This document shows, in pieces, positions 6,661-53,656 of a stretch of 64,000 nucleotides of DNA (the stretch's first letter is position 1; each line of letters begins with the position of its first letter). A program made the position numbers and the translations under genes. The notes beneath the pieces are model-generated. The model was given only the letters and a program-made list of their open reading frames with translations, was not told where the DNA came from and ran no database searches. The stretch covers positions 344,720,001 through 344,784,000 of the forward strand of contig OZ024743.1 in NCBI GenBank assembly GCA_964016885.1, written 5' to 3'. The DNA is from Eledone cirrhosa. Taxonomy: Eukaryota.

Positions 6661-7187
6661 AAAATGGAACGGGATCAAAACAGAGAGGCAGTACAAACAA
6701 AGGTTTATTAGTTTCACGCTCTTGAGAGTGATATATATATAAAGATGGTAATATGGACGAAACAAGAGCAGAACCCCTCAATCAGCTGTTAACTGCAGAT
6801 CATAGATGTTTCCGCACTTAAAACAGGACATCGAAATCGATCAGCAGCGCGCCCAAGGCCTTTTATCAATTAAAAGGCCCCGAGGGGGAGAAAAGATAAG
6901 ATAGTGAAGAGAGAGATAGAAAGAGAAAAAAGGAAAGAGGAAAAAACGAAATAAACTAACCGAATGGAGGGGGCGGGGGGACCCACAGGACAATGGCACA
7001 TGCAAGTGGTCAAGGATCTTATCTTGCCAGGTGATTCTGAGTCCAGTCCCCGTGCATAGCCCCTTAGATGTCTTCTGCTATAGACAACAGTTGACCAATG
7101 CCTTGTGATTAGAATTTGGTAGACAGAAACACTCACACACACACACACACACACATACACACTTACATACACACATATATATATATA

Positions 7188-7377
7188 ACAAAGGAAATGT
7201 GGTAAGGAATCAGATGGACCATAACGCACCAAAGTACTCAATACTTGGGGTAGTAGAGTGGGAAATAGGAAAAAGTATGACCCCCCGACGGCAGAGCTCA
7301 AGCCGTTTCGACGGCTATTTCTGGACTAGAAATAGCCGTCGAAGGGCTTGAGCTCTGCCGTTGGGGTCATACTTTTT

Positions 7378-7381
<4 letters not shown>
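7188..7381 (-). mobile_element. Fold-back mini-element (Penelope-type tail plus palindrome centred on HHR stem II), copy 1
   Basis: About 115-bp palindrome plus a one-sided tail, flanked by (TA)n. Near-identical copies at 52388 and 53417. Confidence 0.75.
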
Positions 7382-7439
<58 letters not shown>

Positions 7440-7442
<3 letters not shown>

Positions 7443-7632
7443 GCATAGTATATTTGGCAATATACCGTATGTTTAATTAAAAACAATTTGGAGACATTAC
7501 GCTATCATTTTAACTCTGCCTTCTTTCGCCGAAAAGAAGTAAGTGACATAGTCACTACTTTAATATGATAGCGTAAGGTCTTCAAAATGTTTTTAATTAA
7601 ACATACGGTATATTGCCAAATATACTATGCAT
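7440..7632. mobile_element. Fold-back / MITE-like element
   Basis: About 65-bp inverted arms TATGCATAGTATATTTGGCAATATACCGTATG... with two small internal hairpins. Confidence 0.6.
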
Positions 7633-8408
7633 ACCACTTTAGAAGGAGAATTAGAGTGGAGAGAGAGGCACTGCACCCCAGTAAATTTACTGAAAGGTAG
7701 GTGAATGTGGCAAAAATGGTCCGGGTGATTGGGCCTTCTCTGTATATAAACCTGTAGGTTGAAGAAGAGAGCAAAAGGAAGAAAGGAGCACTTGCACAAC
7801 ACGATCCTGAAGTTGAGGGTTGTTCTATCGACGGGGTATTAAACAACCCATTTGTGGTGCCTCCCTCCTATTGGGGATTTCGATTGTTATAATTGTTTGT
7901 TTTATACTTTTTACACGATTGTATGTAAAATCCCCGGCATGTCTTTGTTTTGTCCCCTTTTCTTGTGCGCCCTTGTGGCTAATAAAAAATATATATCTAT
8001 CTATGTTCCACCTTTCACTATCAATTTTGTTACCTATCTATCCATCTATATATTCGTATATCTATCTATCTGACTGTCTATCTCTCTATTTATCTTCCTC
8101 TTCATCTAGCTCTATATTTATCTGTCTATCTTCCTCACTGTCAATCTATATACTTATATATACATGTGTATAAATATCCTACTTCGTATGTATATATGTG
8201 TAAGCTCGTATGTCACTCCATATGTGTATCGAGGCTTCTTCAAATCCTCGACGTAATATTGTGCTAAAAAATATAGAAGTCGTCAAAATATTCAAGTAGA
8301 AATGCCATTGAAATCGTTAAATACGTCACAATAAGCTACAACGCTAAATCTTTCATGGCAAAGTTATGTATTACTTTATTTAGATAAACATGTTGTATGA
8401 TATTTATG

Positions 8409-14997: not shown

Positions 14998-15584
<587 letters not shown>

Positions 15585-15831
15585 CACACATACATATACA
15601 TACACACACACACACATATATATATAAGAAAATACATAAATATTATATATATATAAAAATAAAAAGTTGGGAATACGACAAATAATAAATAAATAAATAA
15701 TTAGAAAAGGGTAAAATGTTTATAGCTGATTTAGAGCACTCAACAAGTTCCTGGAGCAAATGATCAATGAAAATAAGCATTAAATCATTGTATGTAATTA
15801 TACATATACATACACACATATACATATATAT

Positions 15832-15864
<33 letters not shown>

Positions 15865-16145
15865 AACACATACACAACCATACAAATACACACATATGTA
15901 CATACATATACATACATATACGTATATATATACATATAGGAAAAAGTGTGACCCCACGGCAGAGCTCAAGCCGTTTCTGAGGCTATTATATATACACACA
16001 CATAAACAATTATATAAAAATACACACACACAAATATACACACGCACACACACACACAAATACAACAGAAGCATATAAAATAGAATTATATACACACATA
16101 CATATACATACAGATATATATAAAAACATACATACACACATATAT

Positions 16146-16249
<104 letters not shown>

Positions 16250-16267
16250 GTATATACACATATACGC

Positions 16268-16347
<80 letters not shown>

Positions 16348-19186
16348 TAAATATCTAAAAATAAAAAAAGGTGGGTATATGGAGAGTAAGGTAGAAAGTA
16401 GGGGGAAATAAGGAAAATAAATGACATAGGAAAAGGTTTAAATATAAGGGGAGATAAGGGAGAAAAAGAATATAAGAGTACAGAAAGTGGATTCAGAAGG
16501 TAAACAAATCGTAGTGGATGTAAGGCGTAGAGAGCAGAGAAGAAGTTCAAGGTGGTTGAGTTATCGTAGGAACGTCAATCCAGTTACAGATCAGATGTGA
16601 TTTCAGGTGAGGACAACATCTGAATATCTCGGTCTTGGAGTTCAGGCAAGTTGAAGTGGCTTTCAAGTTTTGTAAAATCCTAAATTTTTCAGTAGTACAC
16701 AAAGAACAATTCGTTGTGCCCCTTTGGTACTCTCTCGAATGGTCTAAAATAGATCAATTGATAGAGTACGGGATCTTTTTATCCTTGAATTCCCACACCT
16801 TATTTGCGAGAGCCGTTGCTGTTCTTTTATCGGAGTGTTTAAAAGAAGCGACATGTGCATAAAACCTGGTTTTAAACCTGTCCTGAGTCATGCCAACATA
16901 TCGTTCACTCCTGGCTGGCTCGTTGTTAATTAAAGGTGTACTTTGGCCTCATATACAACGGATTTGGTGTTACATTTGCCCTGTAATGGGCATTAATCCA
17001 GCTTCCTGCAACTGCATCCTGGATTTATTCTCGTACAATTAGAATTAGTGATTTTAGACTTCATTGATGGGCAGCAAGAGTAACTGATTTTAACTACATT
17101 TCTATTAAATATCTTATAATATCTATGATTAAGAGGAAAATGTTTATCTAAGAGGTCAAGGAATTTCCTTCCTACATTAGTTTTGACAGTTAGAGAGAAG
17201 GGGGGTATAAACGAAATAATTTTCCTTTTCCTATTATTGTGGTTATTTTTAGGGGGGGGGGGGGGGGGAGTAGGTAAATAATTAATTTGTTCTGTAAATC
17301 CGCTGTTATTAAGGGCTTTATTAAAAATGTCTAGAGACGAAGATAAGGTAGAAATCCTACGGCTAATGTTGGGAATAAGATTTTTTAAAACTATAGAGGG
17401 ATGGCAAGACTCTTTGTGTATATATCTAAGATTTTCGTTAGGTTTATGATAAGGTTTAAAAGAGGCAGTAAGTAGATCAAGATTAATATCAAGAAAGTTA
17501 GCATTGGTAAGGTTCGCATCTATAGTAATTTTAAGGTTAAGATTAGCAAAAGTATTGATTAAATCTTTACGGAATTTATCAAGGTTATGGCCGTCGGTGG
17601 TATGAGAAACTGCCAATCCATCGTCACGGTATAAACCGATATTATGGGAAAGAAATTTCTCTTTGAGGGTGTGGAGAAGGAATAATCCTACTAAGTCACA
17701 CACATCCGCACTGTCAGATGAACCCATTGCAACATCAAAAGAGTTTTCAGGGTTTGACTTTTTAACCCAAATACTTTCATTAGTAAAGAGTAAAGTTTTT
17801 AGCATGAAATATAATGTCTTCTTCTAATTTAGAAATATTAATGAAGGGTCTTGCAAAATCTAAGGCATTAGTTAATAAGGAAACAGTAATAGAGGGGTAA
17901 AAATCAACAAAATATCAAATTGGGTAAATCTACACTTATTTTTACCTTGTATATTATTAAACCAAGAAATAACAGAGGATGTATTTAACCATTATGATAA
18001 GTCAGTCTTAGTTCTAATTTAGAGAATTATTTTTCTTAATATCTTTTGAACCTTATCATAAACCTAACGAAAATCTTAGATATATACACAAAGCGTCTTG
18101 CCATCCCCCTATAGTTTTTAAAAATCTTATTCCCAACATTAGCCGTAGGATTTCTACCTTATCTTCGTCTCTAGACATTTTTAATAAAGCCGCCCCTTAT
18201 TATAATAAAGCCCATAATAACAGCGGATTTACAGAACAAATTAATTATTTACCTACTCCCCCCCCCCTAAAACTAACCTCAATAATAGGAAAAGGAAAAT
18301 TATTTGGTTTACACCCCCCTTCTCTCTAACTGTCAAAACTAATGTAGGAAGGAAATTCCTTGACCTCTTAGATAAACATTTTCCTCTTAATCATAGATAT
18401 TATTAGATATTTAATAGAAATGTAGTTAAAATCAGTTACTCTTGCTGCCCATCAATGAAGTCTAAAATCACTAATTCCAATCGTACGAGAATAAATCCAG
18501 GATGCAGTTGCAGGAAGCCGGATTAATGCCCATTACAGGGCAAATGTAACACCAAATCCGTTGTATATGAGGCCAAAATACACCTTTAAATAACAACCAG
18601 CCAGCCAGGAGTGAAGGATATGTTGGCATGACTCAGGACAGGTTTAAAACCAGGTTTTATGCAATGTCGCTTCTTTTAAACACTCCGATAAAAGAACAGC
18701 AACGGCTCTCGCAAATAAGGTGTGGGAGTTCAAGGATAAAAACATCCCGTACTCTATCAATTGGTTTATTTTAGACCATTCGAGAGAGTACCAAAGGGGC
18801 ACAAAGAATTGTTCTATGTGTACCACTGAAAAATTTAGGATTTTACAAAACTTGAAAGCCACTTCAACTTGCCTGAACTCCAAGACTGAGATATTCAGAT
18901 GTTGTCCTCACCTGAAATCACATCTGATCTGTAACTGGATTGACATTCCTACGATAACTCAACCACCTTGAACTTCTCTGCTCTCTACGCCTTACATCCA
19001 CTACGATTTTTTTACCTTCTGAATCCACTTTCTGTACTCTTATATTCTTTTTCTCCCTTATCTCCCCTTATATTTAAACCTTTTCCTATGTCATTTATTT
19101 TCCTTATTTTCCCCCCTACTTTCTACCTTACCCTTCACAAACCCACCTTTTTTATTTTTAGATATTTATTTCTATGTGTGTGTTGC

Positions 19187-19238
<52 letters not shown>

Positions 19239-20062
19239 GTATGTGTGTATGTATGTTTTTATATATATCTGTATGTATATGTATGTGTGTATATAATTGT
19301 ATTTTATATGCTTCTGTTGTATTTGTGTGTGTGTATATATATATATATATATAATGTGTGTGTGTGTGTGTATTTTTATATAATTGTTTATGTGTGTATA
19401 TATATAATAGCCTCAGAAACGGCTTGAGCTCTGCCGTCGGGTCATACTTTTACTTATATGTATATATATACGTATATGTATGTAAATGTATGTATATATG
19501 TGTGTATTTGTATCGTTGTGTGTGTGTGTGTGTGTGTGTGTGTTTATATATATATATGTATATGTATGTGCGTATCTATATGCATAATTACATACAGTGA
19601 TTTAATGCTTATTTTCATTTATCATTTGCTCCAGTAACTTGTTGAGTGCTCTAAATCAGCTATAAACATTTATACCCTTTTCTAATTATTTATTTATTTA
19701 TTATTTGTCGTATTCCCAACTTATTATTTTTATATCATTCATATATATTATTATTTGTCTGACCCGAATTGGTCGTTTTTTCGGCTGTGCGAATGATTTT
19801 AAGCATTATCTCAGTGTGTTGGTATTTAAACGTTAGTTATAGCTCTGGTTTATTCAAACTATTGAGTACTTTGCCACACTTTTCGAAGATTGTGTTTCGT
19901 TATTTCGTGGGCCGAGATTCCGATTCTCGATAATTTACTTGTATATACAATATTTATGTATTTTCTTATATATATGTGTGTGTGTGTGTGTATGTATATG
20001 TGTTTGTATATATATATATGTGTTTGCATATATATATGTATGTATATATATATATATCTATA

Positions 20063-20820: not shown

Positions 20821-20907
20821 ACTAGAAATTGGATTAAATTCATTTGATTTATCTTTATTTATCTTAATTTTGGATATAGATATATTTATATATATATATA
20901 TATATAT

Positions 20908-21197
20908 AAATAAGAGGAATTCCAACTTTGTCTGATTGACTCGTTTTATTTACAATCCTTTAAAATTTATAATGGTATTAGAATGAAATAGTATGATAGA
21001 ATATTAAATGTTAAGTGTTAATTGAACAAGTACTTTCATGCATTCGCAATCTTCAGGTTCATAATGTGTGGTGACAGTCAAGTTTGCAATTTTCAACTGA
21101 CATATTCTATCATACTATTTCATTATAATACCATTATAAATTTTAAAGCATTGTAAATAAAACGAGTAAATCAGACAAAGTTGGAATTCCTCTTATT
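20908..21197 (-). mobile_element. Fold-back mini-element enclosing a minimal HHR
   Basis: About 95-bp inverted arms (aagaggaattccaactttgtctgat...) around an HHR; present only in the right PLE1 arm. Confidence 0.75.
21023..21061 (-). ncRNA. Minimal type I hammerhead ribozyme
   Basis: TGAAC-CTGAAGA-TTGCGAATGCAT-GAAA-GTAC-TT-GTTCA; palindromic stem III AAGTACTT. Confidence 0.82.
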
Positions 21198-21239
21198 AAT
21201 ATAATCTATACACAATCATACACACCCGTGTATATTTAT

Positions 21240-21489: not shown

Positions 21490-21660
21490 ATGTGTATGTA
21501 TGTGTATATATATATATGTGTATGTATATATGTGTGCATATGTAATTGTGTGTGCATGTGTGTTTATTTTTCCTTTCCTTTTTCGTTTTCCAGCCACACT
21601 TTCATATAGATTATATTTTTGTTTTTTTAAATCCAATATCAATAAATACACCAGGATTTT

Positions 21661-21719
21661 TTCATTCTGATGATTGAAAGCAAAATTTGTTTGCTTTCAA
21701 GAAACCACTGGTAAATGAA
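21661..21719 (+). ncRNA. Type I hammerhead ribozyme (intact)
   Basis: TTCATT-CTGATGA-TTGAAAGCAAA/TTTGCTTTCAA-GAAAC-CACTG-GTA-AATGAA; predicted cleavage after 21713. Confidence 0.92.
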
Positions 21720-21760
21720 GTAATTGCCTTATGTTGTTTATTACATAACTATATATATAT

Positions 21761-23425: not shown

Positions 23426-26101
23426 ATGCTAACAAAGAGTTACTTGCCTTTATCTCTGAAGAATATTCCCATCCGCTCTAGAAATACTTATGAAAAACTC
23501 TTAATTGCTAGTGTTAACTCCTTCGTAAAAAGGATTAGATGGCGTGCTTTCCACTATGATATTAATAGGAATAGGACTGACCCCAAGCATAGAACTCATT
23601 TCAATAACTTTGGCTTCAAAACTTATAAGAGCCCACCACATAATGTTCTATTAGATAATTTTGAAAATGACTTACTTTCCCTTGTCAAAAATGTTAAGTA
23701 TAGGCCATATAATAGATATGGAAATTATAATAAGTTTGACAAGTTCCAGTCTAGACTTAATAATATTGTTAAGGGTTTTAGAGCGAATAAGTCTATTCTT
23801 GTCCCGGCTGATAAGACTAAGAATCTATACTCTATGGATTACAGTGCTTACCGTGATTTTATTTATAAGGAGCTGCATAGAAATTATAAAAAGACTACGC
23901 AGGATAATTTGAACCATATAAATAGTGAGGGTCTTAAGATAGTCTCGGACCTTGACCTCGATAAGTATACCCTAGGGAACCGAGATTCACTCTTAAGGAT
24001 CATAAGGTAGACTTCATTAGTAATCCCTCTGTTAGACTCATCTGTCCTTCTAAGTCTGATATAGCCATAATTAGTAAAACAATCCTTGACCTTATTATAC
24101 CAGATGTTAGGGAGAAGGTTAATTTTAACCTATGGGGGAACACTAAGGAGGTTATAGATTGGTTCTCTGGTATTAATAAACTTGAATCTAGTAGGTTTAT
24201 CCAGTTCGATATTGATGCCTATTACACATCGATTTCATCCATTCTCCTTAATAAAGCCTTAATGTTGGCCATGAGAGTGTCCAGCCTTACACGATCACAG
24301 GTAGATATTATACTAGCAGCCCGTAGAACTATCATTAATTTTGAGGATACTTTTTGGACCCGTAAAAACACGCCCAACAATTTCGACGTTACAATGGGTT
24401 CGAGTGATTCGGCCCAGGTAACTGATCTTGTTGGGCTGTTCCTCCTAAATGAACTATATGTTACCTTTCCGCACCTTAAAGGCGGACACATTATCGTGAC
24501 GATGCATTGTTTGTGATTAACTCTAGCACCAACAACGTCGAGCATAATAAGAAGAAGCTTTATAAGTTTTTTAAAAGCTATAACCTTTCGATCACGATAG
24601 ATAGAAACGATAGAGCGGTCAACCTTTTAGATGTGACTTTGGACTTGGTCACTAATAGTTTTAAACCCTTCCATAAGCCTAATGAAATACTCTCTTATGT
24701 TAGTCCCAATTCTAACCACCCCAAATCTATGATAAGCTCTATAATTAAGGGTGTATCTAATAGGATTTCCACACTCTCTAAGGACGTAGGAACATTTAAT
24801 GCACATGCAGAGTACTATAATAAGGCCCTAGCTAACTCCGGTTACTCTGGTAAAATACATTATAATAATAGTAACCTTAGAAAGTCTCCGCTTACTTATA
24901 ATAATAATAACATAATATCCCATAACATGGCCATGAATGGGAGTAGGACGCATAAGAATCGTAGTAATCACATAGGTGTATCTGAACCCATCCATAAGTT
25001 AAGCCACCGGACTCGTAATAGGGAATCTAATACTTCTATGAATCAAGTCGAGCCCTCTGAGCGCTCACCCAGTGGTAATGATTTTGCTAGATCTAATTCT
25101 AATAATTTTGTTCTACTGATCCGATTATTAGCCCTAATCCTTTTGATATGATTCCAGATAGCAGCAGATATACTAAAGGTAGAAACAGAAAGGGACTTAA
25201 TGGAGTTTCGGCTGATTCTAATAATGTGGTTTTAACTAGTCCTTGTAATAACCCAAATCTTAATAATGGGATATTAGATAACGGTAGAGTTGGTAAGGAT
25301 AAAAATAGAAGGAGACTAAATACTTATTTTAACCCGCCATATAATCAGGAAGTATTAACTAACATCCCTAGATCTTTCTTTTCTATCTTAGAGAAAAATT
25401 TCCCTCCTACTAATAAATACCATAGTATTTTTAATAAAAATGTAATTAAACTTTCATTCTCTACCACCCCTAACATTAGTTCTCATTTAGCTAGCACTAA
25501 CAATGGGAAAATTAGGGATGGATACTCCTCTCTACGTACTACTAGTCTGAATAGATCCATAAATGCCTTACCACCAGAGCAGACCTTATCTCATAGTAAT
25601 CCTACGTGTGATGCATCACTACTTCAGCCGATCAATAACACCCGGAAGTGTAACTGTAGAGTGAGTGCTAACTGCCCTTTAAACGATAACTGCCTCTCTA
25701 AGAACATAGTTTATACTTGTGTAGTTAAAACTAATTCCTCTAATAGCACATATATAGGCTCTACATCTAACACTTTTAAGACTAGGTTTAATTCTCATAT
25801 CTCTAATTTTAAACATGTTAAGTTTAAGAATTCTACTTCTTTAGCACACCATATCTGGGATCTTAAGGGGGCTAATATACCATATAGACTTAATTGGCGA
25901 ATAGTAGCACGCTCTAATAACCTTTCAGCACATACTAAATTTTGTAATCTCTGTATCCTTGAGACCCACTCTATAATTTTCTCTAGGGAAACCTTACTTA
26001 ATAGAAAGTCTAAGATATTCTCTTCTAGCCCCCACGCCATTTTAAATTCTTACTTTTATTATAAACCTAAAGGTTCTAGTAGTGTAAATTGTATCTATTA
26101 G
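23426..26101 (+). pseudogene. PLE2 RT + GIY-YIG endonuclease ORF, frameshifted
   Basis: MLTKSYLPLSLKNIP start, RIRWRA, PADKTKNLY, FDIDAYY, FDVTMGSSDSAQVTDLVG, YRDDA, LLDVTLDL, SNHP, YFNPPY, CNCR....CPLNDNC, NIVYTC...YIGST. Frameshifts near 23970, 24490 and about 25100-25150. Confidence 0.9.
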
Positions 26102-27870: not shown

Positions 27871-28037
27871 TAATAAAGACTTTTGATGTATTGAAGGCTT
27901 CTTTGGTTTATTTTCATAATTCTTCGGCTCTGTTTAATTACATTGAGCTATACCTTTACTGTCATTTCTATAATACGAAGAGGATGTTTAACTCCAACAC
28001 ACTCTAGTATTTTAATTCTTATATATATATATATATA

Positions 28038-29082
28038 TTGTTATACTTGGGGAGGGTCATATTTGTGTAATAATATTGCCAGAATTAATAACAGAACACA
28101 CTCACTGTTTGGTTGGTTTTCGCTTCTGTGTCTTTTATATCGGTTAATTTAATTTATTCGGTTCTCAATGTTGCCATTGACTGACCAACGGTCAAAAATA
28201 CAGATACAATATAGACACAAACACATATATATAGTCTATCAAAGTTCTTTCGTTGCACATCTGCAACATCGTCAGTGGTGCTATTATATTTCCTCCCGTT
28301 GCATTGTATGCTTACGCCATCTTTATTTAGTCTGTTTATTTATTTATATATTTGTTTATTTTCTGTCTTCTCTGCGCATGCGTTTGCGTGAGTGTATAGT
28401 GTTTTGTTTGATGTGTGTTCTTGTTTGGGTGACTGTGCATTGGTTAATGTATTCTATCTTAGTTTACTAGTGTGTCTTTATATGTGTTTGTTCTTATTGT
28501 GTTTGTGTATTTATTTATTTATTTATTTATTTATTTATACTTCTCTTAGGTCAGTGTTGTTTGTTTGGGTGTTGTTATTCCATTCATTTTTTCTGTTTAG
28601 CCTTGGCCTTCTAAGTTCTATTTCGCTGGCCTCTCTGATTTGCCTATCTGCTGGGTCATTTCTATGTTTAGATATTATTCTAACTTCTATGTTGTCTATG
28701 TTACCGTTGTGTTGTTGTCTGGCATGTTCGTATAGTACTGAACCGTTTTTTCGTCCTTTTAGTTCCCCCCAGCGTTGGTCTATCCTTTCACCTATGCTAC
28801 GAGCTGTCTCGCCTATGTATGTTGTTGTCATGTTTCTGCAAGTACCCTCTGTACATCTTATTTTATAGACTACGTTTCTAGTTTTACAATTTATCCGGGC
28901 GTTTACTCTACATATGATACATTTCCTATTAATACAGTGCGTTTTCTTAAAAGGGTAGGTTTTGCTAATCAGGGATTTTATGGTGGTTCCTGGCTTTTCT
29001 ACCACCTTAATCTTTAAGTGGGTCTTTCTCAGGGCCTTTCTACACTGGTTAGCTAATTTACCTCCAGGGGTAGCGTCCACGT
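28038..29082 (-). mobile_element. PLE3 inverted arm (GIY-YIG + pLTR)
   Basis: Reverse complement of about 31850-32910; HHR motif with CTGACGA core at 28236-28280. Confidence 0.9.
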
Positions 29083-32000
29083 TAATATGAAAAGAACAAC
29101 ATACACAAAAGTTAACGAACTTTACAGACAGAACCGCATTAACGGTAAGGATGTCCGAAATCTCACCACACCAAACGAGAGGGATGAATAAGAAAAAACT
29201 AGAAGAAAGAAAAATATTCACAAAAATACCCAGATAACATCAACAATATCTGTATGACTGATGTAGAACTACTGGTAGAATTTACCAATGACCACACAGT
29301 AAATATTTATGGGAACACTTTAATCAGTGAACAAGAACAACAAATCCTGCAGCTACCACCACATCTACAAAAAGTGTAACCCTATTGAGTGCAAAACGGA
29401 GCTGGAAAAGTGTTTCACAAAAATACGTTGGAATGCAAAAGTAAACAACAACAACAACTATACGGACAACAACAACAATAATAACTGTAGTAGTAATATA
29501 AACAATAACTCTGAGTATAGAAATAACAGCTATAATAGTAATAGTCATAACAATAACAATAGCTGGAGAGGGACAAATAGTAATAATGGTAATAATATTA
29601 ACGATAGACAGAACAACAACAACCACAATAATAATAATAATAGAAACATTAACTACAAACACAGCAGCAGCGACCACGGTAGTAATAAAGGTAACAATAC
29701 GAATAACAACAACAACAACAACCACAGTAGTAATAATAGAAATAATATATGTAGTAACATTAAAGATAGACACAACAAAAACAAGAAACATAATAAAAGT
29801 AACAACCACAATGGTAGAAATAACAGTAACAACAACAATAACGGTGGAGAAAACAACAACAATACATCTAACAATCACAGCAACAATACATCTAGCAATT
29901 ATAACAATAATAATAATGTTAATGATAAGAACAACAACAACCACCATAATAACAATAATAGCAACACACACAACTATGACGATAGATATAATTACAACCC
30001 CTTAGAGAAACTATTCTTCAACCCAGCTGACAAAACATATAAGATGGGTAATATCTATCCTACGAGGTTACCCTTTAATAAAAGAGTTTGCATACCACAA
30101 CAAATAGATGATGAGACAGAGGCACAGTTCACCATAGTTAGAAATAAGATTAGACAAATAGTAGACCGGTATACTAAGAGAAAGAGCAGACCAGAAGTCC
30201 AACAACTTGGGAGGAAACCTCTAGAAGGCTAGGTTAGCCTCAAGCAGCGCACAAGGCATAGTGAGGTAGTATGACTACCCACGGATAAGTCTGGTAGGAT
30301 GTCAATAGACAGCATGCCGAACTACATCAATGCTATGCAACCCCACCTCGCCAACACGAGCGAAATTGCACAGCAAATACATGATGGGAGAGAGAAAATC
30401 CTCAACGCTCACATGATGATGTGGACCGACATCCTAAAGCCAAGCAGACGCACTGCCAACAACTTCCAGGCGTCCAACAATGGCATACCACCCTTGTATG
30501 GGCTCCGCAAAGACCACAAGACAGTCGACGACCCGACAACAGGACCACCAACAAGACCTGTATGCGGAGCAAATATAGCTAGCAACTACAGGATCTCCTA
30601 CTTCCTCTCAATGGTTATACGCCCTATAATCAAGATGTCCCCAGATGTATGTGACAGTACAGAGGACCTCCTCAGCAGAATCAGTGAGTGCAACAAAATA
30701 GGAACCTATCTAACTGCATAATAGGCAGTATGGATGTGGTATCACTGTACCCATCCATTAACATTGATTTTGCTGTGGAAAAATGTGTGGAGATGATCAT
30801 TGAGAGTGAGGTGGAGTTCTGCGACGTCGACACAGACGAACTGGGCCTCCTACTTAGACTTACCTACGACACTGACTACCTAGACAGCCAAGACCTTAGA
30901 CGTTTCTGCCCCAGTAGACCCAGAAGAGGTAGACCCCCCCACCATAACCTCAATGGCAAAAAAGACTCCCATGGGAAGGGGGATTGGGTGGACCAAAGCT
31001 ATACGGACCCCCAAAAACAATGATTAGGTAAGAAAAATGGTCGCACATGCAATAGGGGCTAGTATCAAAACTACCCTAAAGGGCCACATATTCAAGTTCA
31101 ACGAGAAGATCTACACCCAAAATGAGGGAGCAGCCATTGGCGTCAGTATAGCTGGTGACATTGCCAACCTTTTTATGGTATGGTGGGAAAGGAGACTCAA
31201 AGATCTCCTTGATGAGAGCTCCATAGACCTCATCATGTACTCTCATTACGTAGACAACATCAATATAGTAATAAGAACATCCCCACAAGAGAGCACTAAC
31301 AAGTTTGATTTAGAACGTAGCACAATGGAAAGCATCCAGCAGATAGCTAATTCCATACACCAGAGTATAACTATCAACTACCCTTCCAAACACCCTAACA
31401 ATAGACTACCTGTATTAGACATGGAACTCTGGATTAACACTATAGACGAGAGAGCCCAAATTCTCCACTCACACTATGCTAAACCCATGGCCTCCAAATA
31501 TCTGATACTCAAAAACTCAGCAATGTCCAGTAGTGATAAGTTTAATATTCTGATCGCAGACTTGATACGAGTGATGAAGAACGTGTCTCGCATGTGCGAC
31601 CCAACAGAAATGGAAAGACACATCCAACACTTCACCAACCGCATGCAGTTCTCTGGCTACAACCAAAGAGACAGAATCAGAGTATACGAAGGAGCCACGG
31701 AGAAGTATAAGTTCCTCATAGAACTGGACATGAAAGGAATTTGCCCACTATACAGGAGCAAATCATGGAATAGCTTAGATAGGACTAGACATAAGACAGA
31801 GAAAGCCACCTCATGGTACGACAACCAGAGATACCAGAGTGTCATGTTTGTGGACGCTACCCCTGGAGGGAAATTAGCTAACCAGTGTAGAAAGGCCCCG
31901 AGAAAGACCCACTTAAAGATTAAGGTGGTAGAAAAGCCAGGAACCACCATAAAATCCCTGATTAGCAAAACCTACCCTTTTAAGAAAACCCACTGTACTA

Positions 32001-32392
32001 ATAGGAAATGTATCATATGTAGAGTAAATCCCCGGATAAACTGTAAAACTAGAAACGTAGTCTATAGCATAAGATGTACAGAGGGTACTTGCAGAAACAT
32101 GACAACAACATACATAGGCGAGACAGCTCGTAGCATAGGTGAAAGAATAGACCAACACCGGGGGGAACTAAAAGGTCGAAAAAACGGTTCAGTACTATAC
32201 GAACATGCCAGACAACAACACAACGGTAACATAGACAACATAGAAGTTAGAATAATATCTAAACATAGAAATGACCTAGCAGATAGGCAAATCAGAGAGG
32301 CCAGCGAAATAGAACTTAGAAGGCCAAGGCTAAACAGAAAAAATGAATGGAATAACAACACCCAAACAAACAACACTGACCTAAGAGAAGTA

Positions 32393-32431
<39 letters not shown>

Positions 32432-32953
32432 ATACACATCCACAAACACAATAAGAACAAACACATATAAACACACACTAGTAAACTAAGATAGAATACA
32501 TTAACCAATACACAGTCACCCAAACAAGAACACACATCAAACAAAACACTATACACACACGCAAACGCATGCGCAGAGAAGACAACAATAAACAAATAAA
32601 TAAATAAATAAATAGACTAAATATAGATGGCGTAATCACACAATGCAACGGTAGGAAACACACAAGCACCACTGACGGTGTTGCAGATGTGCAACGAAAG
32701 AACTTTGATAGACTATATATATGTGTTTGTGTCTATATTGTATCTGTATTTTTGACCGTTCATCAGTCAATGGCAACATTGAGGACCGAATAAATTAAAT
32801 TAACCGATATAAAAGACACAGAAGTGAAAACCAACCAAACAGTGAGTGTGTTCTGTTATTAATTCTGGCAATATTATTACACAAATATGACCCTCCCCAA
32901 GTATAACAATATTTGTTTCGACACAGGATTTCATATCAAAAACATCGCAAAAC
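29083..32953 (+). mobile_element. PLE3 main arm: Penelope-like element of a non-Naiad lineage, RT + GIY-YIG pseudogene
   Basis: TDKSGR, PPLYGLRKDHK, PTRPVCGA, SMDVVSLYPSI, QNEGAAIGVS, YVDNI, LPVLDMELW, HYAKPMAS, NVVYSIRC...YIGETARS. Several frameshifts and stops. HHR-like motif at 32667-32711 (CTGACGG). Confidence 0.92.
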
Positions 32954-33222: not shown

Positions 33223-33290
33223 ATATATATATATATATAATAATAATAAAATGTTGAGAGGAGGCACACGAGTTAGGATATATATATATA

Positions 33291-35449
33291 TGAAAACAGG
33301 GAGAAAGAGACGATTATGAGGAAGAAAAAAATATTTTTTTCCATTTTTGTTTGTCTCTCTCTCTCTTTTTTTTCTGGGTTAGAAAATGATTAAAACGAAA
33401 TGTTTTACTTTGTGTGAAGTGTTAAGGTATTAGTTGATTTATTTATTATTTAACAATTTGCATTTATTTATCTATTTATATATTTAATTATTGTCTATTA
33501 CCGGTTTCAGCATTTTTATGCATTATCAAATGATAGTGAAATGTATTGGTGTGGTGTCGCACGTGTTAAACAGAAGGTGCATAAATAATAATGTTATATA
33601 CAAACAAGGTTTATGAAGTGAAAAGAAAAAAGAAAAAGGAAAAAACAACGTGCATAATGTGGAACGTAAAAAGTCAATGTTGAAGAAAAGATAATTTTAT
33701 TTACAAGTACAGTCATTGAAGTTAAGCAGTTCAAAATGTGTTAATATCGCAAGAGTGTTTAGTTGAATCATGGTTCCGTGAAGGAGGCAAATGGTGGACT
33801 GTGGTTTGATATGATTTCCCTTTTTAGAGAGTTAATATGCAGGGGGAAGTAATTCTTGCTGGGTGATATTTAATTAATTTAAGAAAAAGGATTAGGTATG
33901 GTGTGAGGGAGGTAACTCTTGTAAATGTTTGATGGTTTGTTGCAGTATTAGAAAGGTGCGAATTTCAGGGCATTAAGTACTGGCTGAAATTTATTAATGA
34001 AATGTGTTTCCTTATTGGTGCGTTGGATGAAAGTAGCGTTGTCTATGAATTTACCCACCATCCCTAATCACCAATGGATTCCAACGTGCCCTAAAACTAA
34101 ACATCCAGGAGTGAACCGCAACAAAAAACTCTACCATACATCTACCAAACCCAGGACTGAACCGCAACAAAGATCTCTACCATACATCTCCACACACAAC
34201 CCCCTCAACAATGAGACATTCGATACCATCCTCGAGAACATTCCTCTACTAAAAAGAAACCCAAGAATGAACAATATCCTCCAAACACACAACATCATAA
34301 AGAGCAAAAGACAACCCAAATCCATAAAAAACATCCTCACACAAGCCAAAATCCAACAAACCTTCACAATAAACCCTACAGTAACAAAATGCGGAAGGCC
34401 CAACTGTGGCATATGCATAAATCTAATAGAAGGTTCAACATTCCATTTTAAACAAGGACAGCGTTTCACAGTTAAACACAACTTTACATGTGCATCTGAA
34501 AACCTTATCTATGTTTTGAATTGCTCAGGTTGTCTAGAGCACTATATAGGACAGACAAAAAACAGCCTCCGTCAACGTATGACCGTCCATAAATCACAAA
34601 TTAAAATACAGGAATACAGAAAGATTGCATTTAGTGAACCTATCACCAATTGTGCTCTCAACCAACTTCCAAACTTTAAAATTTTCCCCATTTACAAATT
34701 CATAGACAACGCTACTTTCGACCAACGTACCAATAAGGAAACACATTTCATTAATAAATTTCAGCCAGTACTCAATGCCCTGAAATTCGCACCTCCTAAT
34801 ACTGCAACAAACCATCAAACATTTACAAGAGTTACCTCCCTTACACCATACCCAATCCTTTTTCTTAAATTAATTAAATATCACCCAGCAAGAATTGCTT
34901 CCCCCTGCATATTAACTATCTAAAAAGGGAAATCATATCAAACCACAGTCCACCATTTGCCTCCTTCACGGAACCATGATTCAACTAAACATTCTTGCGA
35001 TATTAACACATTTTGAACTGCTTAACTTCAATGACTGTACTTGTAAATAAAATTAACTTTTCTTCAACATTGACTTTTTACGTTCCACATTATGCACGTT
35101 TTTTTTTCCTTTTTCTTTTTTCTTTTCACTTCTTAAACCTTGTTTGTATATAACATTATTCTTTCTGCACCTTCTGTTTAACATGTGCGACACCACACTA
35201 ATACATTTCACTATCATTTGATAATGCATATAAATGCAGAAACCGGTAATAGACAATAATTAAATATATAAATAGATAAATAAATGCCATTGTTAAATAA
35301 TAAATAAATCAACTAATACCTTAACACTTCACACAAAGTAAAACATTTCGTTTTAATCATTTTCTAACCCAGAAAAAAGAGAGAGAGAGAGACAAAAAAG
35401 AGGAAAAAAAAAATTTTTTTCTTCCTCATAATCGTCTCTTTCTTCCTAT

Positions 35450-35454
<5 letters not shown>
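33291..35454 (+). mobile_element. PLE4: Neptune-type Penelope-like fragment with inverted arm
   Basis: Main arm from about 34050: CGRPNCGIC, FTCASENLIYVLNCSGCLEHYIGQT, KETHFINKFQPVLN. Inverted arm 33291-34052. Degenerate HHRs at 33495-33536 (-) and 35211-35252 (+). Confidence 0.88.
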
Positions 35455-35498
<44 letters not shown>

Positions 35499-36633: not shown

Positions 36634-36712
36634 GCTTTTACCGACGGTTTCGCCTCACAAAATATTGGGGGTCCAAAGGAATTCCAATGGAAAGATCGGC
36701 TCTTCAGAAAGC
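36634..36712 (-). ncRNA. Type I hammerhead ribozyme with long stem II loop
   Basis: GCTTT-CTGAAGA-GCC...GGC-GAAAC-CGTCG-GTA-AAAGC; tail runs into (TA)n at about 36555. Confidence 0.8.
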
Positions 36713-37480
36713 TATTTCCATTGCATAGGATTTAAAATCCCATAGCAAGCAAATACACCGCTAACTGCCAGCTAGTGAAAGATCGAGTGGGCCGTTAAAA
36801 ATTGACCTACACGTGAACTGGACGTCTATATTTTTGCTATTTAGAATACATTGTGTAATATGGCACCACTGGCAGCATTCACTGACCTTGATGTATTCAG
36901 TAGTCACAAATCTCTTTATTGGTGGGCAGCTGATAATGAAGAGGTCATATAAAAGCATTTTCGAATAAGCCTGTATGAAGGTTTTGTAAAATATTTCGAA
37001 AATGTGTTTTGTTAAATATGATAGAGGTTCAACTATGTATGGTTTAAAAACAATGGGTGGGACCAAATCTTGTAATACTCTTCTTATAAATACAGATTAA
37101 ATACGTTTTCTTATATGAATTTAGTTAGTATTGGTGAACCAACTGATTGTTACTGATGTTACTGATTATGTTATGCTTTTTTTTAATACGTAATGTGGCA
37201 TTTACCAAAATTAGTAGATGTTAGTAGATATTGCAGTAACATTTTTTCTGTCATTCAAAACAATACATTGGTTTCAGTTTATGAATGTGAAACTATCACT
37301 AAAATACCGATCAACCTATTTAGTAATATCCAAATATCAAACAGCAACTGAGGTCAAGCTTCATAACAACACAACTCTAGACAACATAACTTACTAAAAC
37401 ATTATCTCAAAGAAGGCAGCACAACTATAAGACACACATTCAATCTAGATATTCACATTTACATTACACATTAAAAAAAA

Positions 37481-52366: not shown

Positions 52367-52387
52367 ATATATATATATATATATATA

Positions 52388-52577
52388 TAACGAAGGAAAT
52401 GTGGTAAGGAACCAGATGGACCATAACGCACCAGAGTACTCAATACTTAGAGTAGTAGAGTGGGTAATAGGAGAAAGTATGACCCCGACGGCAGCGCTCA
52501 AGCCGTTTCGACGGCTATTTCTGTTCAGAAATAGCCGTCGAAACGGCTTGAGCTCTGCCGTCGGGGTCATACTTTTT

Positions 52578-52581
<4 letters not shown>
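52388..52581 (-). mobile_element. Fold-back mini-element, copy 2
   Basis: As 7188-7381, in (TA)n. Confidence 0.78.
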
Positions 52582-52638
<57 letters not shown>

Positions 52639-53375: not shown

Positions 53376-53416
<41 letters not shown>

Positions 53417-53419
<3 letters not shown>

Positions 53420-53610
53420 CGAAGGAGGTGTGGTAAGGAACCAGATGGACCATAACGCACCAGAGTACTCAATACTTAGGGTAGTAACGTGGGTAATAGG
53501 AAAACGTTTGACCCCGACGGCAGAACTCAAGCCGTTTTGACGGCTATTTCTGGACTCAGATATAGCCGTCGAAACGGCTTGAGCTCTGACGTCGGGGTCA
53601 AATATTTTCC

Positions 53611-53612
<2 letters not shown>
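53417..53612 (-). mobile_element. Fold-back mini-element, copy 3
   Basis: As 7188-7381, in (TA)n. Confidence 0.78.

Positions 53613-53656
<44 letters not shown>

Follow-up and report, generated by a model that had tools for sequence, protein, structure and literature searches.

How do short palindromes that bear half of a self-cleaving ribozyme in each arm arise? The question is raised by a stretch of 64,000 nucleotides (nt) from Eledone cirrhosa (assembly GCA_964016885.1, contig OZ024743.1, positions 344,720,001 to 344,784,000, forward strand; hereafter 'the window'), in which an initial annotation recognized three copies of a mini-element, beginning at 7188, 52388 and 53417, each made of a palindrome and a tail on one side only. 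That annotation read each arm as the 3' half of a type I hammerhead ribozyme from a Penelope-like element (PLE), which we confirm, and proposed that the element folded back exactly on stem II of the ribozyme, which we do not. We consider it probable that these elements, here called minis, are short inverted PLE pieces made from two internally primed complementary DNAs (cDNAs) that ran off the 5' end of an RNA and were joined head to head. The sites where the arms meet would then mark the start of that RNA and, in a rarer class, the predicted cut of the ribozyme.

The three copies are real, at 7185-7382, 52387-52582 and 53416-53613, with palindromes of 116-118 bp, an 80-bp tail in each, and the order of motifs in the arms that had been described. 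Copies 2 and 3 share 88-92% identity with copy 1, and (TA)n lies on both sides of each. Positions are numbered on the sense strand of the parent, 0 being the first G after GUC, that is, the predicted hammerhead cut; the tailed arm of every copy is on the minus strand of the window. In copy 1, the tail (7185..7264, minus) spans +21 to +100, the 80 nt with which the parent's 5' leader opens, and is bounded by the two copying starts; the tailed arm (7265..7328, minus) runs from +20 to -41/-42 and holds the end of loop II, the 3' strand of stem II, GAAAC, stem III, the GUC site and the 3' strand of stem I; and the inverted tail-less arm (7328..7382, plus), which overlaps the other by 1 nt, covers -36 to +20 and ends in (TA)n. 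This right arm deviates by GAAG instead of GAAAC and GTT instead of GTC. Copy 2 has its tail at 52387..52466 (minus), a tailed arm from +20 to -37 at 52467..52523 (minus) and an inverted arm from -37, or -39 allowing one mismatch, to +20 at 52524..52582 (plus). The tail of copy 3 (53416..53495, minus) is followed by an arm from +20 to exactly -41 (53496..53556, minus), then by a C that is either untemplated or the first base of the partner arm, which covers -37 to +20 (53557..53613, plus). The central spacers measure 5, 4 and 6 nt, so that the fold point differs among the three copies. Minis have neither the 5' box of the hammerhead nor the 5' strands of stems I and II, and their ribozyme core is incomplete.

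Exact-pattern searches of the 3.0-Gb genome gave 49,212 matches to a 16-mer of the tail, versus 0 for the reversed control, and 10,629 palindromes fitting a strict pattern (14 + 14 nt, spacer of at most 30 nt), numbers well above those that chance would give. Four of the first 30 loci read on beyond the minis' 'stem II' into a 3' untranslated region (UTR) and an open reading frame (ORF) of reverse transcriptase (RT)/GIY-YIG type. Tandem and inverted units occur together at locus L065, where an inverted truncated copy with tail and a partial tandem copy accompany a full unit that ends at +20 and contains an intact ORF of 719 amino acids (L065:3280-5436) with YRDD and YIG motifs. A Pfam search of this ORF returned zero matches, while the protein has 2,054 homologues at E<=1e-30, one of them with PF01541. 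Its translation includes RWR and DKT, which align by eye with the Hydra rows in the supplement of PMC8557442, a linker CNCPDRSIC (CxCX5C), and CNLCSEE (CxxC) and NKK...CKH (CxH) around E and N. By these protein motifs the parent is assigned to the autonomous Hydra-clade Penelope-like retrotransposons. Its target is (TA)n: TA repeats are found at the tail end in nearly all of the 30 loci, and also after +20. Beyond +100 the parent runs on into its 5' UTR and ORF, and because the tail does so at 334 places genome-wide, some of them in arrays with a period of 3.53-3.54 kb, it is the start of the leader, as in Poseidon_Ac (PMC11167929). Small bulged hairpins stand directly behind +20 and +100; the +100 hairpin is absent from minis. 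Beside one long copy lie ORF pieces (L074:485-3237) that, from their motifs, presumably belong to a Helitron-like Rep/helicase.

To locate the ends of the arms, all of the first 100 tail matches on contig C1 were analysed: 10 are long and 90 short, and 74 have an inverted arm. Arms have two fixed starts, +100 and +20, both in (TA)n; the inverted arm ends at +20 in 59 of the 74, and most of the others are alignment stops in divergent subfamilies. At the opposite side, the deepest point falls between -33 and -46 in 64 of the 90 short copies, mostly at -35 to -45, while 25 stop sooner and only 2 breaks lie between -47 and -170. The peak judged by eye, -40/-41, matches that of the palindrome-pattern search.

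Inversion points thus gather near stem II, as the initial annotation had it, but their peak lies 5-7 nt beyond it, and a fold exactly on stem II is unsupported since the break points shift base by base between copies. The explanation then offered, that native stem II supplies the self-complementarity for fold-back of one cDNA or annealing of two, draws on this proximity to the stem II 3' strand. The native 5' strand, however, is situated about 35 nt upstream of the minis' 'stem II' and is missing in minis, and hence the perfect 'stem II' of the latter is the 3' strand opposite its own mirror image. Moreover, the junction that such a model predicts, retaining loop II and switching at the 5' strand, has 0 matches genome-wide against 6,855 read-through copies, which refutes the model for the subfamilies covered by the search pattern; we give it next to no credence.

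A fold-back independent of native stem II, in which a single cDNA begun at +100 snaps back near its end, is copied to +20 and joins the target, would account for near-identical arms with a common stop and for those junctions with 1-4 nt of microhomology; snap-back has been reported for R2 (PMC11371274). Against it, loops of zero or one base are common, both arms can bear an extra C of their own (see below), the +20 end is fixed despite other TAT sites in the tail, and solo tail-less arms exist. Arm lengths also speak here: the tailed arm is the longer in 28 of the 74 copies, the tail-less one in 37, and 9 pairs are equal. An excess of the tail-less arm of at least 10 nt was flagged in 21 of the 74 (about 13 after hand inspection), and simple fold-back of a tailed cDNA cannot give such copies. 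This scenario is therefore very unlikely in our judgement. At one locus (L021, contig C1 near 2,989,350), the host flanks of a mini form an inverted duplication of 91 bp, 99% identical, which suggests that both arms were primed from the same target side in some events; such flank duplications are rare, being clear at L021 and otherwise seen at about 2 of 30 loci.

What, then, is found at -41? This position is the A of T(T/C)AGTCC, inside loop II, a context that matches the initiator consensus YYANWYY. In 16 of 24 aligned parents it is preceded, at a distance of 29-31 nt, by a TATA-like TATTTA(A/T), whose first four letters were set by the search pattern and also pair in stem II. Junctions of arms ending at -41 were collected with a pattern that leaves out the commonest C class (4,146 matches, of which 100 are listed, some loci being counted once for each arm). 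In 84 of those listed the arm is followed by C in the cDNA, and in the other 16 by T; by hand check, about 22 of the 84 C are attributable to the partner arm and about 60 are not explained by it. The parent base at -42 is T in 91 of 100 listed copies, C in 9, and G or A in 0, and as it is never G, the extra C is never templated by the arm's own sequence. Where both arms stop at -41 with one base between them, C outnumbers T by 13 to 1, although T should be the commoner if the base were templated; some junctions have an extra C on each arm, and in some C is followed at once by the target TA. An extra G from the cap is reported to mark the 5' junctions of full-length L1 insertions (PMC11702581), and -41 looks like the start of a capped RNA. 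The AG near -40 was considered as a 3' splice site and rejected, as the arms contain it and a constant upstream exon is absent. At L178/L179 (contig C1 near 27,009,640; period 257 bp), L180 and L182, short units that begin at about -41 and reach the 5' UTR or the first codons are repeated in tandem, which amounts to repeated restarts at one 5' end.

The same stop could be produced on a long RNA if RT stalled at a structure, such as the upper hairpin of stem II or a bound protein, in which case -41 would be no RNA end. Indeed, -41 lies in the 3' strand of the predicted upper hairpin of loop II, and the ends are spread over about 12 nt. Yet a stall does not provide for the untemplated C or for initiator-like and TATA-like motifs in register, RT gets through the stronger stems I, III and II, and almost no stops occur from -47 to -170, where the stem II 5' strand and the core lie. 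Position -41 is passed in about 10 of 74 cases on first arrival versus 16 of 21 on second arrival, that is, after copying of the whole ORF; a structural block would forbid this. Of those 21, four come from one array, and 13 of 18 pass when the array is counted once. We regard stalling as unlikely. The difference between the two arrivals indicates that circular or read-through RNA was probably the source of most long copies, as proposed in PMC4209133; an inefficient transfer at each pass is the less likely source.

A parent with a complete hammerhead had been anticipated and does exist: the pseudo-long terminal repeat (pLTR) contains a complete type I hammerhead (6,405 matches genome-wide) made of stem I, the core UUGANAA, G10.1, stem II, GAAAC, stem III and GUC, so that core boxes, three stems, the G10.1-C11.1 pair and an NUH site are all present, with a stem II loop of about 35 nt. 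The expected CUGANGA, in contrast, was found in none of 100 parents listed among these matches, which, on our count, fall into about 74 with U3-A8, about 23 with C3/A8 and 3 others; all four bases occur at N7. In 24 aligned copies, 93.7% of cells are paired. The hammerhead is the minimum-energy fold at L065, with a z of only -0.56, and another fold takes this place at L031 and L036. The subfamily with the C3/A8 mismatch (L036, L050, L051 and L053 among them) has amplified; it is possibly an active lineage with a non-cutting ribozyme.

A second, rarer stop coincides with the predicted scissile bond. Palindromes centred near 0 number 381 genome-wide. Among 50 listed loci, both arms end exactly at 0 in 23 with a short, mostly A/T insert and in 10 that are blunt, so that both arms meet the predicted bond in 33 of 50; in 6 others one arm ends at 0 and the other at +/-1, and 11 are of other kinds. 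All 10 near-0 palindromes that were fetched have one tailed and one tail-less arm, and junctions at 0 are found at 4 of 30 loci that take in the 5' UTR. These ends suggest that the parent ribozyme is cleaved at the predicted bond in vivo. No 0/-41 hybrid palindrome occurs among 100 listed arms that stop at 0 and are followed by A or T, a set in which partners starting with C or G are invisible. That a rare end is common to both arms and that no such hybrid was seen point to one RNA template for both arms, and the excess of C at -41, which is not seen at 0, fits a capped end at the former and an uncapped end at the latter.

The following sequence of events would reconcile these observations. 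RNA polymerase II would start at the initiator-like A at -41 in loop II, 29-31 nt behind a TATA-like box that doubles as the 5' strand of stem II; as this start lies within loop II, the front of the capped RNA would hold half a ribozyme and could not cut there. The RT/endonuclease would cut both strands of a TA repeat and prime at +20 and +100, where TAT fits the target. The two cDNAs would run off at lengths of about 61 and 141 nt, often with a C added opposite the cap. RT would then switch from the end of one cDNA to that of the other, or the pair would be joined by repair, with little trimming; template jumping is reported for R2 (PMC11371274). Where a read-through RNA has been cut by its complete ribozyme before it serves as template, both arms would stop at 0. 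Minis are probably dead on arrival, since they have no ribozyme core, no TATA-like box and no hairpin behind +100.

Several points weigh against this account. The start site, the cap and the cleavage are all read from DNA junctions alone; untemplated bases are added by RTs at ends of every kind, and the predicted location of -41 in the upper hairpin of stem II could make RT stall there. The spread of arm ends from -33 to -46 obliges us to assume trimming or microhomology, and the automatic calls run too deep, to -44/-46, where parent and junction sequences are alike, such overshoots being among 12 calls at -46. One-sided deletion after insertion, or gene conversion between arms, could mimic the asymmetry and identity of the arms. 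At the cut site, the 10 blunt junctions can also be read as -1/-1 with a 2-nt CG overlap, hybrids whose partner starts with C or G escape the A/T-limited listing, and two near-hybrids (0/-38 and +1/-42) are present among the 100 tail matches. For the ribozyme, there are 0 two-sided compensatory changes among the 24 aligned copies, covariation being nil, and an Rfam search of the parent ribozyme gave no match at E<=10. Finally, in a second family with a sharp 5' end (described below), G precedes the fixed A in only about 6 of 24 copies.

Are the minis nevertheless a family in their own right? The initial annotation raised a separate non-autonomous family as its alternative, and a self-propagating element (of the short interspersed element type or like a miniature inverted-repeat transposable element, MITE) that copies itself as a palindrome would suit their abundance, roughly 100-fold that of tail-to-5' UTR junctions (49,212 versus 334). 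A tree was built from 75 of 135 insertions, made up of 53 palindromic, 17 long and 5 truncated copies; the remaining insertions were too short or were rejected by the motif filter, and branch support is rough. One branch of five rows has no long copy in the sample. Over the whole tree, however, the palindromic label is unclustered, with 17 changes versus 16.8 in shuffles, identical sequences are present in both long and palindromic copies, and minis recur in many subfamilies: they form no clade but are interspersed among long copies, and have arisen repeatedly. The two arms of one insertion differ by a median of 1, arms of different insertions by a median of 5 (49 pairs). The junctions of minis vary from copy to copy, and neither the TATA-like box nor the hairpin behind +100 is present in them. 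We hold such self-propagation to be highly improbable, and completion of the half-ribozyme in trans, as the initial annotation envisaged, need not be invoked. A DNA transposon or MITE was rejected, for the ends at +100 and +20 are not inverted copies of each other, the centres vary, and there is no constant internal sequence; target-site duplication cannot be read within (TA)n. A retrozyme of the type without long terminal repeats was likewise rejected: minis are single and inverted with half a ribozyme, and the tandem units of the parent are coding, with a period of about 3.5 kb.

A wider proposal, which we put forward as a tentative possibility, is that PLE replication includes a strong-stop step like that of retroviruses, with RNA ends determined by the hammerhead. 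If it holds, the start would lie inside the ribozyme, stem II serving as TATA box, the front copy would remain uncut and the rear copy would cut, and the front start and rear cut would leave a 41-nt terminal redundancy. The run-off cDNA would have to be transferred to the RNA's rear end, or else use a circle formed by ribozyme cutting and ligation; successful transfer or circle use would yield full and tandem copies, and failure would yield minis. This would explain the pLTRs, the inverted ends, the tail and the uncut ribozyme site in insertions. Its pure-transfer version is disfavoured by the passage of -41 in 16 of 21 cases (13 of 18) after the whole ORF; circular or read-through templates fit better.

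Further features were noticed in the window. At 14998-15354, with a tail reaching about 15440, a tailed palindrome of a second PLE-type family has a complete canonical hammerhead in each arm. This family has 225 palindromes genome-wide with clustered centres, and about 31 of 100 rows are truncated, about 24 of them starting at a fixed A in a CCACTAT context, upstream of the complete canonical hammerhead; a sharp 5' end thus recurs in the second family, the cap-like base less clearly. The nested inverted repeat at 15639-19752 consists of a Hydra-like RT/GIY-YIG element that has decayed and is folded back on itself; its identity to the L065 protein is 35-56%. A flank of about 570 bp is duplicated inverted in it (15639-16194/19188-19752), and contains a solo tail-less arm of a related mini subfamily, +20 to about -34 in (TA)n (15936..15987, minus), with its inverted duplicate (19406..19457, plus). 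Another Hydra-like ORF, in pieces, extends over 23429-26068 (36-46% identical to the L065 protein). By motif scan, other elements at 21659-21722 (plus) and about 36640-36715 (minus) contain type I hammerhead motifs that are complete and canonical, and an Rfam scan of the window gave microsatellite-driven matches alone, below the gathering score. Self-palindromic elements also lie in or near TA repeats at 20895-21210, 7440-7633 and 2451-2596; they could be true MITEs or run-off pairs from other families. Large inverted repeats, 95-96% identical, occur twice more, at 28035-32912 and 33278-35467.

PLEs are the closest relatives of telomerase RT, and the minis bear on how these elements rebuild their pLTRs and inverted ends and on the role of their hammerheads. 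Tens of thousands of junctions act as a fossil map of 5' ends with two sharp positions, one having a cap-like extra base at an initiator motif and the other lying at the scissile bond of a U3-A8 ribozyme. Base-exact predictions follow: a capped start at -41, a cut at 0, and run-off cDNAs of about 61 and 141 nt. The results also suggest that many 'MITE-like' hairpins in such genomes are run-off products of retrotransposons.

Two known processes provide partial parallels. In L1 twin priming, two primers on one RNA produce a head-to-head inversion, and in retroviruses priming near the 5' end of the RNA gives a short run-off cDNA, the minus-strand strong-stop DNA. Unlike in either, the second start is fixed here, both primers are target DNA, and the arms cover the same 5' segment. 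Among PLEs, the layout, the tail, the two starts, the pLTR promoter and the U3-A8 core are already in print (PMC8557442, PMC11167929, PMC3846280, PMC2377424, PMC4209133), and run-off at a start within the ribozyme, a cap-like base and cut-site junctions were not found in a literature search that took in publications other than older reviews. In the pLTRs of Adineta vaga and of Drosophila virilis Penelope (PMC3846280, PMC2377424), as here, an inverted pLTR abuts a direct one, with palindromes at pLTR 5' ends, and TATA- and initiator-like motifs and a promoter are contained in the pLTR; the D. virilis start differs in lying upstream of the ribozyme (PMC2377424). The portions of these papers used here give no run-off model, and PMC2377424 speaks of no obvious mechanism for pLTR regeneration.

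The parent resembles the Hydra clade of PLEs with a C-terminal endonuclease (Craig et al. 2021, PMC8557442) in its single ORF with RWR/DKT, CxCX5C linker and CxxC + CxH, its (TA)n target, its hammerhead in the pLTR, and its tandem and inverted copies with a one-sided tail. PLE tails are reported as 30-40 bp versus 80 bp here, Hydra-1_oBim of the supplement has a canonical core and a different protein whereas the present parent is U3-A8, and, unlike in the reports on that clade, about nine in ten insertions here consist of the pLTR alone, as minis whose 5' ends are fixed. In Poseidon_Ac (Frangieh et al. 2024, PMC11167929), similarly, RT starts at two internal sites, which delimit the tail; both strands of the target are cut and extended, and the main template is uncleaved RNA, ribozyme cleavage being dispensable in vitro; in our case, unlike in Poseidon_Ac, both starts end in TAT, fitting the target. 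In the parts of that study drawn on here, there are no RNA reads at the ribozyme cut, and neither run-off products nor a start within the ribozyme are described. The Cercyon PLEs of Schistosoma (Cervera and de la Pena 2014, PMC4209133) share the U3-A8 core, the type I topology and a bulge at the base of stem II, and form opposite-strand pairs 100-700 bp apart. Their hammerheads are minimal, unlike the present one with its stem III of 5-6 bp, palindromic loop and loop II of about 35 nt; and here, in contrast to Cercyon, junctions at the cut site suggest cleavage in vivo.
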